From the IMG/VR virus record IMGVR_UViG_3300043450_000376: 64,000 nt of DNA. The stretch is one strand, 5' to 3'. The notes beneath the pieces were generated by a model. It had not been told where the DNA came from. It saw only the letters and a program-made list of their open reading frames with translations, and did no database searches. Made by a program: the position numbers and the translations under genes. Positions 45,013 to 55,682 of this stretch are shown here, piece after piece (the stretch's first letter is position 1; each line of letters begins with the position of its first letter). The stretch comes from a virus. Taxonomy: Duplodnaviria; Caudoviricetes.

Positions 45013-45684
45013 ATGAGAAACGAATTTGAAAAATACGCGATGAGTAAGCATGGCATTTCTTCACTGAATATGCACTACCATCAAAAACAGATTGAGTCGT
45101 CAATGACTCCTTATATTTTAGAAGAGCGCGAATTACGTGCAACTCAAATGGATATTTTTTCCAGATTAATGATGGAAAGATTAATTTGGGTAGCCGGGCC
45201 AGTCAACGATCATATGTCGACTATTGTTCAAGCTCAGCTAATGTTTTTGGATTCAGTTGATGGATTAGATATTACAATGCATATTGATAGTCCAGGCGGA
45301 AGCGTTAAGAGTGGTCTTTCAATGGTAGATGTAATGGACTATATTAACTGCGATATCAAAACAGTTAATACTGGAATGGCTGCATCAATGGGATCAGTGT
45401 TGTTAGGAGCAGGAACAAAAGGAAAGCGCTCCTCACTAAAACACTCAACTACAATGTTGCATCAGTCTTCAGGCGGTTTTAGCGGAAATATCCAAGATGC
45501 TGAAATCGATATGCAAGAGTGGCAAAAGGTAAATGCTGAGTTGTTTGTTTTACTAGGTGGATATTGTGATAAAGATCCAGAACAGGTAAAACGGGATGCA
45601 ACTCGAGACTTTTGGTTAAATGCAGAAGAGGCCAAGGCATATGGAATTATTGATGAAGTAATTACAAAAAAGCCTAGAAAATAA
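45013..45684 (+). CDS. clpP: ATP-dependent Clp protease proteolytic subunit
   Basis: MDIFSRL, IDSPGGSV, GMAASMGSVLL, MLHQ, RDFWLNAEEAKAYGIID. Confidence 0.95.
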   Translation: MRNEFEKYAMSKHGISSLNMHYHQKQIESSMTPYILEERELRATQMDIFSRLMMERLIWVAGPVNDHMSTIVQAQLMFLDSVDGLDITMHIDSPGGSVKSGLSMVDVMDYINCDIKTVNTGMAASMGSVLLGAGTKGKRSSLKHSTTMLHQSSGGFSGNIQDAEIDMQEWQKVNAELFVLLGGYCDKDPEQVKRDATRDFWLNAEEAKAYGIIDEVITKKPRK

Positions 45685-45689
45685 TAATT

Positions 45690-45771
45690 GGGAGTATCGC
45701 ATAGCGGCAATTGCCAGGGACTGTAAATCCCTCCTCATTCGAGTTCGGTGGTTCGAGTCCACCTGCTCCCA
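45690..45771 (+). tRNA. tRNA-Tyr(GTA)
   Basis: Loop CTGTAAA, long variable arm. Confidence 0.95.
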
Positions 45772-45777
45772 CAAAAA

Positions 45778-45799
45778 GGTCTTTGACATATTGGAAAGT
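45778..45799 (+). promoter_or_regulatory. rrn-type boxA element, second copy
   Basis: GGTCTTTGACATATTGGAAAGT, near-identical to 43379. Confidence 0.7.
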
Positions 45800-45803
45800 A
45801 CAC

Positions 45804-45874
45804 TGTCCTGTGGTGTAAAGGCAGCACATCTGGTTTTGGTCCAGATAATCGAGGTTCGAATCCTTGCGGGACAA
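45804..45874 (+). tRNA. tRNA-Gln(TTG)
   Basis: Loop TTTTGGT. Confidence 0.93.
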
Positions 45875-45882
45875 CATGGGGC

Positions 45883-45986
45883 TTGTGGAAGTCCAAGAGT
45901 AGGCAAGTAGCTTATATCCACAATGGTGAAGAGAACCCTTAGTTTATAGATGGTTACTATAAATCAAGTAGACGTCACACTTCACC
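45883..45986 (+). ncRNA. candidate two-domain structured ncRNA
   Basis: Three 7-bp perfect helices. Confidence 0.45.
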
Positions 45987-45991
45987 TATTT

Positions 45992-46064
45992 GCCTCCTTA
46001 GCTCAGCTGGTAGAGCAACTGATTTGTAATCAGTAGGTCGTTGGTTCGATTCCGACAGGAGGCT
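45992..46064 (+). tRNA. tRNA-Thr(TGT)
   Basis: Loop TTTGTAA. Confidence 0.95.
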
Positions 46065-46129
46065 CAATACAATTATTAACCTGTTTATAGTATAATAACT
46101 ATAATTAATAATTTAAATAAAGTATACCT

Positions 46130-46303
46130 ATGCAAACATTAGCACAAATCCAAGCAACACTTGACGCGGTTCAAGCAGATGCAGTAAAGTTTTTCGAAAG
46201 CGGAAACAAATCAGCTGGAACGAGAGTTCGTAAAGCCATGCAAACTATCAAAAGTCTAGCACAAGATGTTAGAGCTGAAGTTTCGGCTAAGAACAACGCT
46301 TAA
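46130..46303 (+). CDS. Hc1-family histone H1-like protein (57 aa)
   Basis: Manual translation MQTLAQIQATLDAVQADAVKFFESGNKSAGTRVRKAMQTIKSLAQDVRAEV. Confidence 0.8.
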   Translation: MQTLAQIQATLDAVQADAVKFFESGNKSAGTRVRKAMQTIKSLAQDVRAEVSAKNNA

Positions 46304-46369
46304 CCTATTGAATTTTTTAAAATTCAACTAAGTCTACTCCGGTCGAGACTATAAATAAGGATCGGAGAT

Positions 46370-46443
46370 GGGGGTGTAGCTCAGTTGGCTAGAGCATCTG
46401 CCTTGCACGCAGAGGGTCGCAGGTTCGATTCCTGTCACCTCCA
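46370..46443 (+). tRNA. tRNA-Ala(TGC)
   Basis: Loop CTTGCAC; G3:U70. Confidence 0.95.
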
Positions 46444-46445
46444 CT

Positions 46446-46633
46446 ACAAATCTTACATAAGACGGGTTAGCACCGTTGAAAGAGACCTTGGCTTCGTGGG
46501 AGTAATTACCCAATGAAGTATACATGACCCAAGGTATTATGTGATGGACCCTGCTCTGTAGTGCACTTACACCAGGTGAACAGTAAACTATGTTCAATCA
46601 AATCCACAAGCATGGTGAGCATGCAAGATTTGT
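46446..46633 (+). ncRNA. candidate multibranched ~190-nt ncRNA
   Basis: 9-bp closing stem plus about nine internal helices. Confidence 0.65.
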
Positions 46634-46638
46634 TTTTT

Positions 46639-46710
46639 GGCCCCATCGTCTATCGGTTAGGACGCCAGGTTTTCATCCTGGAAAGTCGGGTTCGACTCCC
46701 GGTGGGGCTA
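46639..46710 (+). tRNA. tRNA-Glu(TTC)
   Basis: Loop TTTTCAT. Confidence 0.95.
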
Positions 46711-46717
46711 CACAATT

Positions 46718-46789
46718 GGTCCTGTAGTTAATCGGCTATAACGCCGCCCTGTCACGGCGGTATGCCGGGTTCGATTCCCGGTGGGACCG
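46718..46789 (+). tRNA. tRNA-Asp(GTC)
   Basis: Loop CTGTCAC, G73. Confidence 0.95.
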
Positions 46790-46794
46790 CAACT

Positions 46795-46895
46795 AGTTAG
46801 GAGTCCATTGGTTGGAGGCACCTCCCCAAGGTTGAGTACAGTTAGGCTGACTCTTTATGGCAAAGCTGGAATAGGTTCGAATCCTGTCCTGACTA
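46795..46895 (+). tRNA. atypical tRNA-like RNA with enlarged D domain (possible TAG anticodon)
   Basis: Acceptor AGTTAGG/CCTGACT, T arm ATAGG-TTCGAAT-CCTGT, bulged anticodon-like stem. Confidence 0.55.
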
Positions 46896-46975
46896 CAACA
46901 GTGTCTCGGTACGCTCTGACGAAAGTTAACGACGAGGTCCCGGCAGGCAGAAGGCCTCTGATCCTGCCCAAAGCT

Positions 46976-47047
46976 GCGAATATCGTATAGTGGTTATTAC
47001 TCCATCCTTCCAAGTTGGAGACGACAGTTCGATTCTGTCTATTCGCT
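46976..47047 (+). tRNA. tRNA-Gly(TCC)
   Basis: Loop CTTCCAA, U73. Confidence 0.92.
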
Positions 47048-47102
47048 CAAAAAGTTTTTAGGTATATTAAAAACTATTATTAACTAAGTAATACAATAAA
47101 AC

Positions 47103-47531
47103 ATGAATATCACAAAAGCACTTAAACAGAAAAACAAATTAGTTTCAAAAACTAATGAGTACATTTCGCATGTTTCGGCGTACAACTCGATTCAAGAAGG
47201 AACTACACGTCCTTATGATGCAAGAGAAGCGTTGGAAAAAGCAATGGCGTCGGTTGATGAATTAGTTGCCCTAAAAACAGCTATTCACAAAGCTAACTCA
47301 AAGGTTTATGATAAAATCTTTAAATTGGCTGAACTAAAATCTTTGGTTTCTAAATTGAAAAGTTTGGATTGCAAAGAAGGAATGCACCAATCATATCGAA
47401 TGGATGCTCCAGTAAAATACACTACACAAATCTCAATTGTTGAGAAAGACCAGTGGATTGAAAAATTGGAGTCTCAAATCGAGATGTTGCAAGAGGAGTT
47501 AGAAGCTCACAATGCAAAAACCAAAATTTAA
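47103..47531 (+). CDS. coiled-coil protein resembling the DIP1984/DUF6847 family
   Basis: MNITKALKQKNKL...LVALKTAIHKAN...IFKLAELKSL...IEMLQEELEAHNAKTKI. Confidence 0.65.
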   Translation: MNITKALKQKNKLVSKTNEYISHVSAYNSIQEGTTRPYDAREALEKAMASVDELVALKTAIHKANSKVYDKIFKLAELKSLVSKLKSLDCKEGMHQSYRMDAPVKYTTQISIVEKDQWIEKLESQIEMLQEELEAHNAKTKI

Positions 47532-47822: not shown

Positions 47823-48672
47823 ATATGTAGCCTAGCTTGCTAGGTTGCAACACGGTCGCCTATGATCGTTAAATAAATCTGGAAACAGATATAAAGTGGA
47901 GCTATAAGACTTATCGGCTCTGCGGTTTCGCAAGGAACTCAAGTAGGCAAGCAGGATATCAGAAGTCCTGAGTATCTGAGGGTAACACTGTAGGAGAAAT
48001 GGAATGCTGACTAGGCGATGTGGGTCGTTTAGTTGAGAGGGGAACCTCAATAAGATTAACCTGTAGGATATTTGCAAGGAGTGGACTCATCCGACTCCAT
48101 GATTGCGAACTCCAATTTAATGGGAACCTTAAAGTCGAAAGACAAGTTGGTGTACAGACGGTGCTGTTACTAACCTTATCATCAGTCTACCAAGGCTGCA
48201 GTTAAGAGGAATCCGGAAAAATTGAGGTAGGGATATCTCAGAGAGTAGTTAAGTATCGACCCTGACAAAATCGGGGTTGGCCTAATGACGAGCCACTACT
48301 TTCATAATCCACAGAGTCAAAAACTTTGGAATAAAGTTCTATTGGTGAATAACTAATCCAACCCAAAAAACAAAGCTTAAGCGCTCGTCAGCTGCGAACG
48401 AAAGGTGCCTACCTAGTAACTGGTTGTCAGTTGCCGTAGAGGATCGCAAGTCCAATACGAGTTCTCAGAAAAATCTATAGCCTCGCAAGGGTTAACGGGA
48501 TCGGCAGATTCTGGTAGATATAATATGAGGAGAGTAGTTCAAACCCGCAGCTCAAGGAGTGGTACACCTAAAAAACCGGCACTGTTAGAATAGAGATCAA
48601 AAGTCTCTGGATAAGTAGGGAAACAATAATCCTATGTAAAGATCTAACGTTAAAACGTATAATCTCAGCGTT
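47823..48672 (+). ncRNA. large structured ncRNA, GOLLD-like
   Basis: About 850 nt without a credible ORF, between tRNA genes; many hairpins and GNRA/GCAA loops; duplicated GAGAGTAGTT; 3' end GGGAAACAATAATCC...AATCTCAGCG plus T-run, matching my recollection of GOLLD. Confidence 0.7.
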
Positions 48673-54088: not shown

Positions 54089-54565
54089 ATGAAACTATAC
54101 TTACTTAGAGGATTACCAGGAAGTGGTAAATCAACCCTAGCCAAAGAATTAGGCGGCAGGCACTATGAAGCAGATATGTTCTTTGTAGATAAGGATTCTA
54201 ATTATAACTTTGATGCAACTAAATTGAGTGAAGCTCATGCTTGGTGTCGTCATTCAGTAATGGCAGAAATGAAAGCTGGCGAACCTATTATTGTAGTATC
54301 AAATACCTTTACTCAAGCTTGGGAAATGTCAGCCTACTTTGATTTGGCTGAAGAACTTGGATATCAAGTATTTTCTCTAATAGTTGAAAATCGTCATGGC
54401 GGTAAAAATTTACATGGCGTACCCGATGATAAGTTGGAACAAATGAAAAATAGATTTGAATTACAACTACTTCCAGTAAAAGAAATTAAAATGGAAGATG
54501 TATTCAATGATGAGAAAAAAGAAGATCTTAAAAAATTTATAAACGAACACAAAAATGGAAAATAA
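54089..54565 (+). CDS. AAA_33 P-loop polynucleotide-kinase-like protein
   Basis: LRGLPGSGKST, VSNTF, HGVP. Confidence 0.88.
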   Translation: MKLYLLRGLPGSGKSTLAKELGGRHYEADMFFVDKDSNYNFDATKLSEAHAWCRHSVMAEMKAGEPIIVVSNTFTQAWEMSAYFDLAEELGYQVFSLIVENRHGGKNLHGVPDDKLEQMKNRFELQLLPVKEIKMEDVFNDEKKEDLKKFINEHKNGK

Positions 54566-55682
54566 TAATTCAGTGTGCTTTGTTGCAACAGTTAAGGAAA
54601 TTAAACCAATTGAAGGTGCTGATAAAATTGAATTAGCTGTAGTTGGTGGATGGAACTGCATTGTGCAAAAAGGTCAATATAAAGTTGATGATTGGGTAGT
54701 TACTGCAACAACCGATGCAGTAATTCCAATTAAGCTTTCTGATGAACTTAATGTTACAAACTATCTTAGAAAAGGTGGTAGGGTCCGTACTGTAAAATTA
54801 CGTGGTGTTTATTCTGAATGTCTAGTGATTCCGTTAAAGCATATTCCATTCATGGAAAACTACTATGAAGGTAAGGACATGATGTATGCAATGGATATTT
54901 GGAAATACGAACCTCCAGTTAAACAGGTTCAATTGGCTAGCGGTAAAAAGATTAGGTATTCCGAAAATCCAAACTTTCATATCTACTATAAATTTCCAAA
55001 TGCAAAAAATGTACCAGGAATGTTTACCGAAGAAGATTGGGTTGAGATTTCTCGTAAGATCCATGGTACTAATGCAAGATACGGTATTGTAAAGAAAAAC
55101 AAACTTTCCTTATTTGATAAAGTAAAGAAATTATTTGGTGTTAAATGGGTCGATTATGAATTTGTAGCAGGTTCACACAATGTTGAAAAGGGTTCTGACT
55201 CTCAGGGTTTCTATGATACTAATGTGTGGTATGATGTTGCCGATAAATATAACATTAAGGAAGTTTTATGGAAGTTTGCCAAGGACACCGAAAGATTCCC
55301 AGACGGTATTGGTATAGGCGTAGTTTTATACGGCGAAATTTATGGAGCAGGTATTCAAAAGAACTATGATTATGGACTAAAGGAAATTGAATTTGCAGGG
55401 TTTGACTTGGAAATCAATGGCAAATACTGTTCAACTGATGAATCTTTTAATTTTGTTGGAATTGAAATGGATTTACCTTATGTTGATGTGTTATATGTTG
55501 GAGAGTGGAATAAAGAAATTGAAGATATGTATGTCTTTAAGAATTTTATCCCTGGAACTAAAGTGCCACACGAAGGAGTTGTTGTAAAACACCACACCGG
55601 TGATCGTCATAAAGTTGCAAAGGTAATTAATCCAGACTACTTAATATATGCAGAAAACTGGGAAGTTGGTGACAGCCATTAA
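54555..55682 (+). CDS. ATP-dependent RNA ligase, DRB0094/Rnl2-like, with N-terminal OB domain
   Basis: IEGADKIE; motif I KIHGTN; YGEIYG; FDL; EGVV; KVIN. Confidence 0.88.
   Translation: MENNNSVCFVATVKEIKPIEGADKIELAVVGGWNCIVQKGQYKVDDWVVTATTDAVIPIKLSDELNVTNYLRKGGRVRTVKLRGVYSECLVIPLKHIPFMENYYEGKDMMYAMDIWKYEPPVKQVQLASGKKIRYSENPNFHIYYKFPNAKNVPGMFTEEDWVEISRKIHGTNARYGIVKKNKLSLFDKVKKLFGVKWVDYEFVAGSHNVEKGSDSQGFYDTNVWYDVADKYNIKEVLWKFAKDTERFPDGIGIGVVLYGEIYGAGIQKNYDYGLKEIEFAGFDLEINGKYCSTDESFNFVGIEMDLPYVDVLYVGEWNKEIEDMYVFKNFIPGTKVPHEGVVVKHHTGDRHKVAKVINPDYLIYAENWEVGDSH

Follow-up and report, generated by a model that had tools for sequence, protein, structure and literature searches.

A full-length form of the orphan RNA freshwater-1 with candidate self-pairing loops in a phage tRNA operon

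Introduction

Freshwater-1 (Rfam RF02979) is an orphan RNA family, which we take to have been published as two hairpins from aquatic metagenomes, with no organism assigned and a presumed role as a small RNA (sRNA). It is reportedly one product of the 224-motif survey of Weinberg et al. in 2017. The family is not named in the main text of that paper (PMC5737381; Weinberg et al. 2017) and no mention of it was found in the literature searched. Neither there nor in the Rfam model line did we find a ~190-nt extension of freshwater-1, a phage or transfer RNA (tRNA)-slot setting, or a self-pairing signature. Phage tRNA clusters are known to hold other RNAs. In T4, two small stable RNAs, rnaC and rnaD (species 1 and 2), lie 1–6 nt from their neighbours in the tRNA cluster, from which tRNA-type processing releases them, and are annotated directly after tRNA-Arg (NC_000866, 70908–71171). 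The GOLLD and ROOL RNAs are phage- or prophage-borne and are often found beside tRNA islands. Here, we describe an RNA element in the same kind of setting, at positions 46446–46633 of a 64,000-nt stretch of viral DNA (the window) from the Caudoviricetes (IMG/VR record IMGVR_UViG_3300043450_000376). A first-pass annotation had described it, without database searches, as a new stable RNA of multibranched fold that fills the spacer between two tRNA genes. Judged by its alignments, the element is the full-length form of freshwater-1, new as an extension but not as a family.

Relation to freshwater-1

An Rfam scan at the gathering threshold gave no match at the element. In a scan by E-value, freshwater-1 was found at 46540–46602 (+) with 71.2 bits (E 4.5e-16) against a cut-off of 72. 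The match spans all 62 of the 62 model positions and lies 0.8 bit below the gathering score, so routine annotation misses the window copy. The same two scans gave no match to transfer-messenger RNA (tmRNA), RNase P, signal recognition particle (SRP) or 6S RNA, in agreement with the first-pass annotation, whose claim of novelty is too strong, as domain 2 of the element is freshwater-1. The family passes its curated cut-off in 7 of 13 relatives of the whole element (72.4–87.7 bits). One of these is the closest relative (L063), which shares the tRNA-Ala/tRNA-Glu setting. Under R1, our covariance model of the whole element, the window copy (217 bits) and the Rfam-passing relatives (165–228 bits) fall into one alignment. 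The consensus elements UGUGAUGGACCCUGCUCUG, the GUGCAC apex, CAGGUG and AAUCAAA are all present in the window, and we consider the assignment to freshwater-1 to be sound.

Freshwater-1 and the window have in common two adjacent hairpins (P8–P9 and P10) and the conserved flanks UGUGAUGGAC and AAUMAAA. The Rfam model covers 62 nt and leaves these flanks unpaired, whereas here they are paired: the conserved 5′ flank is the 3′ strand of helix P2, and helix P7 involves the flanks as well. The Rfam family corresponds to one domain (domain 2) of what is here a ~190-nt four-way-junction RNA, and the core was never seen without domain 1 among the loci sampled. The threefold larger, covariation-supported architecture accounts for the seemingly unpaired conserved flanks of the Rfam model. 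Freshwater-1 can also be assigned to large T4-like phages of lakes (genomes of 119–311 kb), in which its placement follows a rule: each genome has a single copy, set in a tRNA slot.

Conservation of the fold

Minimum free energy folding recovers nearly all of the helices listed in the first-pass annotation. The expectation that the element would fold better than shuffled sequence holds to a modest degree (z −2.49, with 4 of 200 shuffles equally good); however, the minus strand folds as well (z −2.64), and energy alone therefore decides nothing. Relatives were gathered by exact-word scans of viral contigs with a core 17-mer, a domain-1 16-mer and a gapped pattern. The loci align over the whole spacer-long element, well beyond the Rfam core. 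When the 11-helix structure is laid over a MAFFT-only alignment, which is not fitted to structure, 93.6% of the cells are paired and 29 of 58 pairs are changed on both sides, compared to 35–44% and 8–14 pairs for controls in which the structure was slid along the alignment.

The covariance model R1, built from 31 sequences, matches 84 copies on viral contigs, among which 65 sequences are distinct. On metagenome contigs it matches 57 copies with 54 distinct sequences, and the two sets pool to 112 distinct sequences. All 141 matches are full length unless a contig end cuts them, with one copy per locus. Hits of the search patterns that R1 rejected are chance matches in G+C-rich coding DNA. The R1 alignments are paired in 96.5% (viral) and 95.8% (metagenome) of their cells, against 31–43% in slid controls, and compensatory changes are seen at 44 of 57 and 38 of 57 pairs, respectively. 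For four of five measures, none of 500 shuffles reaches the observed values in either set; the fifth measure, that of further standard pair types, is reached by 37 of 500 shuffles in the metagenome set. G-U pairs are frequent, the closing pair of P3 being G-U in 64 of 64 rows and one pair of P7 being GC in 29 rows and GU in 28, which fixes the strand as plus, that of the tRNAs. All 11 helices of the first-pass annotation are present at the positions it gave, and ~96% of the cells are paired over the 112 distinct homologues. Comparative analysis of these sequences confirms 46446–46633 (+) as a conserved structured RNA gene.

Architecture of the RNA

In the element, P1, domain 1 (P2–P6), domain 2 (P7–P10) and the hairpin P11, all on the plus strand, meet in a four-way junction with linkers of 0 nt (P1/P2), 2 nt (P2/P7), 3 nt (P7/P11) and 0 nt (P11/P1). 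P1 pairs ACAAATCTT (46446–46454) with AAGATTTGT (46625–46633) and is compensatory at 9 of 9 pairs. It is 9 bp long in the window and 9–18 bp in relatives (median 12). A tract of five T residues (T5; 46634–46638) follows its 3′ strand; in the relatives, the tract after P1 usually pairs with an A-rich 5′ leader, giving a longer P1.

Domain 1 (46455–46542) shows compensatory changes in each of its five helices. P2 joins ACATA to TATGT (46455–46459/46538–46542). This helix had been drawn as ACATAA/TTATGT in the first-pass annotation; five of its pairs stand, and the sixth, A46460–T46537, does not, as each of its bases covaries elsewhere. In a mutual-information scan, T46537 covaries with A46483 (AU 48, GC 42) and A46460 with A46536 (AA 64, GG 42), both within the junction. 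Hairpin P3 (46461–46477) consists of a 5-bp stem, GACGG/CCGTT, and the 7-nt loop GTTAGCA, and is followed by the joining strand J3/4 (GAAAGAG, 46478–46484), of which the GAAAG part is invariant. P4 (ACCTTGG/CCAAGGT, 46485–46491/46529–46535) and P5 (CTTCG/TGAAG, 46492–46496/46514–46518) lead to P6 (GGG/CCC, 46498–46500/46509–46511) with its loop AGTAATTA at 46501–46508. The returning strand J5/4, TATACATGAC (46519–46528), contains an ATG that is invariant in the alignment columns.

Domain 2 (46545–46606) is closed by P7 (TGGA/TCCA, 46545–46548/46603–46606), which changes to AGGAG/CTTCT in a divergent group. P8 (CCTG/CAGG, 46550–46553/46573–46576) is invariant, so that covariation neither supports nor contradicts it, and forms an invariant core with the internal loop CTC/C that separates it from P9. 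P9 (TGTAG/TTACA, 46557–46571) and P10 (TGAACA/TGTTCA, 46577–46582/46591–46596, loop GTAAACTA) both show compensatory changes, and the domain ends with J10/7, ATCAAA. The fourth arm, P11 (GCATG-GTGAG-CATGC, 46610–46624), has a GNRA-plus-one loop and abuts the 3′ strand of P1. It is paired in 100% of the cells of both sets and is compensatory at 5 of 5 (viral) and 4 of 5 (metagenome) pairs.

Two parts of the structure vary. About one relative in ten has lost P11 or carries something else in its place; in L124:4544-4739 (+), L126:3192-3393 (+) and ~10 metagenome copies, this hairpin is absent or reduced to a few A-rich bases. In this sub-group, the four-way junction becomes three-way. A branched insertion of ~60 nt replaces the P5–P6 tip in L051:9942-10210 (-), L090:425-691 (+) and L273:9018-9271 (-), and two of the three insertions end in a hairpin with the palindrome UAGCUA in its loop. 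The mutual-information scan yielded no couplings besides those of the helices, those of the loop palindromes and the pairs 46483–46537 and 46460/46536, and no further pseudoknots. An intramolecular kissing interaction of P3 with P6 was rejected, as the P3 variants ACUUGCA and AUAAGCA are not complementary to the P6 loops that occur with them. P6–P11 kissing is possible only in 7 sequences with P11 loops of the UUAAYGCG type and is not general.

Palindromic loops and possible self-association

The apex of P9, GTGCAC (46561–46566), is a self-complementary 6-mer and a candidate symmetric kissing loop or duplex-swap site. It is a perfect palindrome of at least 6 nt in 110 of the 112 distinct sequences, in seven versions (GUGCAC in 73, UGGCCA in 26, AGUGCGCACU in 6, GUCGAC in 2, and AUGCAU, UGUACA and UCGCGA in 1 each) that are spread over many different sequence backgrounds. 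Parsimony gives ~23 switches between versions on a tree made from the rest of the molecule, an upper-leaning estimate, the tree being short and noisy. The whole P9 hairpin is a 14-nt near-palindrome in the window, and the 14–15-nt hairpin is often a perfect palindrome in the family. Since the inner four bases of the apex cannot pair within one hairpin, their kept self-complementarity points to intermolecular pairing.

The loop of P6 (46501–46508) is a second candidate symmetric kissing loop, consisting in the window of two unpaired bases (AG) and the 6-nt palindrome TAATTA. A palindrome of at least 6 nt is found in 80 of 108 distinct sequences, as two unpaired bases followed by UAAUUA or UAGCUA. 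The adjacent bases 46505 and 46506 are among the strongest covarying pairs of the mutual-information scan (GC 59, AU 48; 99% Watson–Crick). Adjacent bases cannot pair in one chain, and this covariation therefore counts for self-pairing between molecules. In the loops of P3 and P10, taken as controls, no palindrome reaches 6 nt.

Covariation of neighbouring bases and changes from one palindrome to another (from GGCC to GAUC or AGCU) have been used in support of symmetric kissing loops (Kretsch et al. 2025, PMC12286853), and those of OLE (L9.3) and GOLLD (L21a) were borne out by cryo-electron microscopy (cryo-EM) (PMC12286853). According to a 2026 preprint, orphan motifs of less than 200 nt, such as manA, can form large assemblies or cages via kissing loops (10.64898/2026.07.01.735769). 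The combination of loop-palindrome switching and adjacent-base covariation described for OLE, GOLLD and ROOL (PMC12286853) is found here at both P9 and P6, from which we infer homotypic RNA–RNA contacts that would join copies of the RNA into a dimer or a higher assembly. Unless collinear, two symmetric contacts do not share one two-fold axis, and on geometric grounds a dihedral oligomer or a polymer would be the natural outcome. That P6 and P9, as two independent symmetric loops, build a symmetric multi-subunit RNA-only particle or chain is a tentative proposal, on which we would not insist.

The loops could have another meaning if the RNA acts in trans as a monomer that binds or decoys a host or phage protein, such as a tRNA-processing, translation or defence factor; the palindromes would then not mark RNA–RNA contacts but would be bound by a dimeric protein, or be a quirk of the structure. 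The invariance of P8 and its internal loop, of GAAAG in J3/4 and of ATG in J5/4 is typical of conservation at a protein or ligand site, and such a role would suit a single-copy element located in a tRNA array of a phage that also encodes an RNA ligase (54555–55682). However, the seven P9 palindromes favour self-complementarity as such over one recognised sequence, and protein binding does not readily account for the adjacent-base covariation in P6. Nor is any protein gene consistently linked: no conserved partner protein was found within about 5–7 kb, where the best cluster of open reading frames (ORFs) is present in 13 of 65 loci. We consider a protein decoy unlikely.

Position in the tRNA operon and probable release

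The element, which spans 188 nt between and including the outermost bases of P1 and scores 217.4 bits under R1, lies in a 194-nt gap between tRNA-Ala(UGC) (46370–46444, +) and tRNA-Glu(UUC) (46639–46711, +), both called by ARAGORN, the former also matched by the Rfam tRNA model with 71.5 bits. It nearly fills this spacer, as had been noticed in the first-pass annotation. The tRNA-Ala gene does not encode CCA, its discriminator A46443 being followed by C and T. The placement recurs in the family. A same-strand tRNA lies upstream of 57 of the 65 distinct viral copies and ends 1–12 nt before P1 in 53 of these 57; a downstream tRNA is present for 37 of the 65 and starts 4–14 nt after P1 in 31 of the 37. 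The neighbouring tRNAs are all on the same strand and represent 10 upstream and 15 downstream anticodons. This tight spacing combined with varied anticodons indicates that the element occupies the place of a tRNA gene, whatever its neighbours.

Each of five phage genomes that are 86–100% complete (119–311 kb) contains a single copy, and some copies come from marine assemblies. No blastn match was found among 50,697 GenBank phage records, and R1 finds nothing in five huge-phage records, those nearest to the window by topoisomerase. A search of 185,579 species genomes, with a pattern that detects only close relatives, gave 66 matches of which 2 are real. Both are on contigs of metagenome-assembled genomes, one of 2.9 kb assigned to 'Micavibrio' and one of 45 kb assigned to Chitinophagaceae, and are probably binned phage DNA.

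RNase P generates the 5′ ends of tRNAs. The spacing geometry, together with what is established about RNase P and the trimming of tRNA 3′ ends, argues for release of the element by tRNA maturation: it is very probably co-transcribed with the tRNAs and excised by the tRNA-processing enzymes, with its ends protected by P1. This release route had been suggested for the window alone and is supported by the tight tRNA spacing in the relatives.

A cis-acting module of the tRNA operon, functionless after excision, would likewise always be found in tRNA operons and abutting tRNAs. It could guide processing, act as a spacer or serve as a large terminator or attenuator formed by P1 and the U-tract; a U-rich tail is found 3′ of P1 in about two thirds of the copies, many copies have no downstream tRNA within 400 nt, and a terminator scan lists P11 and the T-rich sequence after it, with the tail AAGATTTGTT. 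In the window, however, the 9 nt of the P1 3′ strand lie between P11 and the T5 run, which comes directly after P1, and tRNA-Glu is only 5 nt further on, so that termination would cost three tRNAs. The U-tract mostly pairs with the A-rich leader to extend P1, only one spacer per genome has the element, with the other tRNAs of the same arrays 1–10 nt apart without it, and a processing site or terminator would need far less than ~190 nt, 11 covarying helices and a set of invariant loops. A purely cis-acting role is improbable on these grounds.

A ribozyme, self-cleaving or otherwise catalytic, could for example free the neighbouring tRNA ends, which lie within a few nucleotides of the ends of the element, and the conserved unpaired nucleotides at the junctions would fit such a role. 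Its P2/P3/P4 junction has strands of 1/7/2 nt, comparable to the 1/7/3 of the hammerhead. The likeness is confined to the layout: UGAAAGA and AU depart from the hammerhead core CUGANGA/GAA, and there is no Rfam match. Indeed, no ribozyme family (hammerhead, twister, pistol, hatchet and others in Rfam) was found at E up to 10 in 45600–47200, and a distance to the tRNA end that varies from 1 to 12 nt is unsuited to a fixed cleavage site, which leaves catalysis even a little less probable than a cis-acting module.

A tRNA mimic, in which P1 would be the acceptor stem and P11 the T arm of a substrate for tRNA enzymes or of a decoy for tRNA-targeting nucleases, is suggested by the tRNA-slot placement, by the 0/2/3/0-nt junction, in which P11 abuts the P1 3′ strand as a T stem abuts an acceptor stem, and by the anticodon-arm-like 5-bp stem and 7-nt loop of P3, but is highly improbable given the lack of a T-loop (the P11 loop is GUGAG), of CCA and of any ARAGORN or Rfam tRNA match, the 9–18 rather than 7 bp of P1, the loss of P11 noted above and the varying U33 position of P3 (AAUAGCG in 8 sequences), for which an anticodon-loop mimic was rejected.

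Proposed mechanism

All four of these explanations, the protein decoy, cis module, ribozyme and tRNA mimic, were judged less likely than a stable, self-associating phage RNA, which appears to be the best reading of the element. As a whole, the view that it is full-length freshwater-1, an RNA of the tRNA slot that is released by processing and associates with itself in trans, is one that we hold with moderate confidence. The ~190-nt single-copy RNA gene, placed in the tRNA operon of large phages from lakes and, in some cases, from the sea, would be transcribed along with the tRNAs. The 3′ maturation of the upstream tRNA would free its 5′ end, and RNase P acting at the downstream tRNA-Glu would make the 3′ end, or the end of the transcript would do so where no tRNA follows. 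P1 would seal both ends against exonucleases. The freed RNA could then pair with its own copies via the P9 apex and the P6 loop and act in trans as a homodimer or as part of a larger, symmetric assembly of RNA. As a guess, suggested by the invariant core of P8 and its internal loop and by the genomic company of the element, the assembly might bind or sequester a component of tRNA or translation metabolism.

Several points weigh against this view. Alignments fitted to a model bias the pair counts towards that model, and the relatedness of the sequences causes shuffle controls to overstate significance. In RNAcofold, the energy gained by a P9-swapped dimer is −14.1 kcal/mol, or −9.4 kcal/mol with the P9 palindrome broken, values of little weight, as the dimer gain is of the kind that almost any hairpin RNA gives. 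The P6 loops of the UCGCAA class (26 of 108) are not palindromic. For a kissing complex, the 4-nt loop of P9 with its closing G-C pair is small; the apex may have to open, or strand swapping at P9 may give a 14-bp duplex. The P9 palindrome could also serve a dimeric protein. Finally, the oligomer is a prediction from sequence statistics, and the biological role is a guess. Even so, the palindrome-switching loops turn the orphan motif into a concrete and cheap experiment, and freshwater-1 becomes directly testable through the longer unit, its place in phage tRNA slots and its self-pairing signature, taken together.

Genomic surroundings

The tRNA region of the phage in the window contains 24 tRNA genes (ARAGORN), and the Rfam scan identified a GOLLD RNA at 48241–48671, 1.6 kb downstream of the element. 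The window also encodes T4-type topoisomerase II subunits, by which its closest GenBank relatives are uncultured huge phages with ~50–60% identity. GOLLD co-occurs with the element in the window, L063, L123 and L015; an obligate linkage was rejected, as only 1 of 5 genomes carrying the element has GOLLD. The phage contig L123, which has both, also carries a tmRNA gene (L123:13561-13958 (-), 98.7 bits). The commonest neighbouring ORF, seen in 13 of 65 loci, encodes a PF04308 'RNaseH_like' (YkuK-type) protein on the strand of the element, for example at L072:2307-2879 (+), ~0.75 kb upstream, and is too rare for a partner. About 8 kb downstream of the element, in the tRNA-rich region, the RNA ligase gene at 54555–55682 (+) has matches to PF09414 and the PHA02142 OB fold, in line with a tRNA-repair capacity of the phage.

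The 185-nt gap between tRNA-Asp and tRNA-Gly contains a tRNA-shaped RNA at 46794–46896 (+), which neither ARAGORN nor the Rfam tRNA model calls. Its acceptor stem (AGTTAGG/CCTGACT) has 7 bp and its T arm carries GGTTCGAATCC, but there are oversized or extra arms; two further hairpins follow at ~46904–46965. The 116-nt gap between tRNA-Gln and tRNA-Thr (45876–45991, +) folds weakly better than shuffles (z −1.48). A 57-codon ORF rich in Ala and Lys (46131–46303, +) lies between tRNA-Thr and tRNA-Ala. The promoter-like sequence TTAACC-18-TATAAT at 46076–46105, 5′ of this ORF, may be the start of a transcript carrying tRNA-Ala, the element, tRNA-Glu and tRNA-Asp.

Comparison with known RNA systems

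The analogy with the stable RNAs of T4, drawn in the first-pass annotation, is valid for context and not for descent. Both rnaC and rnaD lie in a tRNA cluster and are true positional analogues of the element, but are unrelated to it: R1 has no match there with its filters off, the best score in the region being 10.5 bits elsewhere. Moreover, rnaC ends in a tRNA-like T arm, whereas the element has none. The element extends the picture of phage tRNA operons as production lines for stable RNAs besides tRNAs.

Like the element, phi29 prohead RNA (pRNA) is a phage RNA of less than 200 nt with paired 5′ and 3′ ends and two loops for intermolecular pairing. The pRNA loops are complementary to each other and join hand in hand, whereas those of the element are complementary to themselves. 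pRNA serves packaging in phi29-like phages only. The layout of the P6 loop, an 8-nt loop of two unpaired bases and a 6-nt palindrome, is that of the dimerization initiation site (DIS) of HIV-1, a likeness of layout only.

The closest parallel in principle is with GOLLD and ROOL, which share the genomic setting of the element, and with OLE, a bacterial RNA. These RNAs belong to other families and are 2–4 times longer, and their assemblies have been seen by cryo-EM, whereas the oligomer of the element is only predicted. The element has no complementarity to GOLLD, and GOLLD holds none of its loop palindromes. What P9 and P6 have in common with GOLLD, ROOL and OLE is the signature of symmetric kissing loops whose palindromes switch between versions. 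If assembly into a multi-subunit particle or chain is true, the element would be a small counterpart of the GOLLD and ROOL cages from this genomic neighbourhood, akin to them in principle but unlike them in sequence, at a time when the RNA-only assemblies of GOLLD, ROOL and the short orphan manA are being solved.

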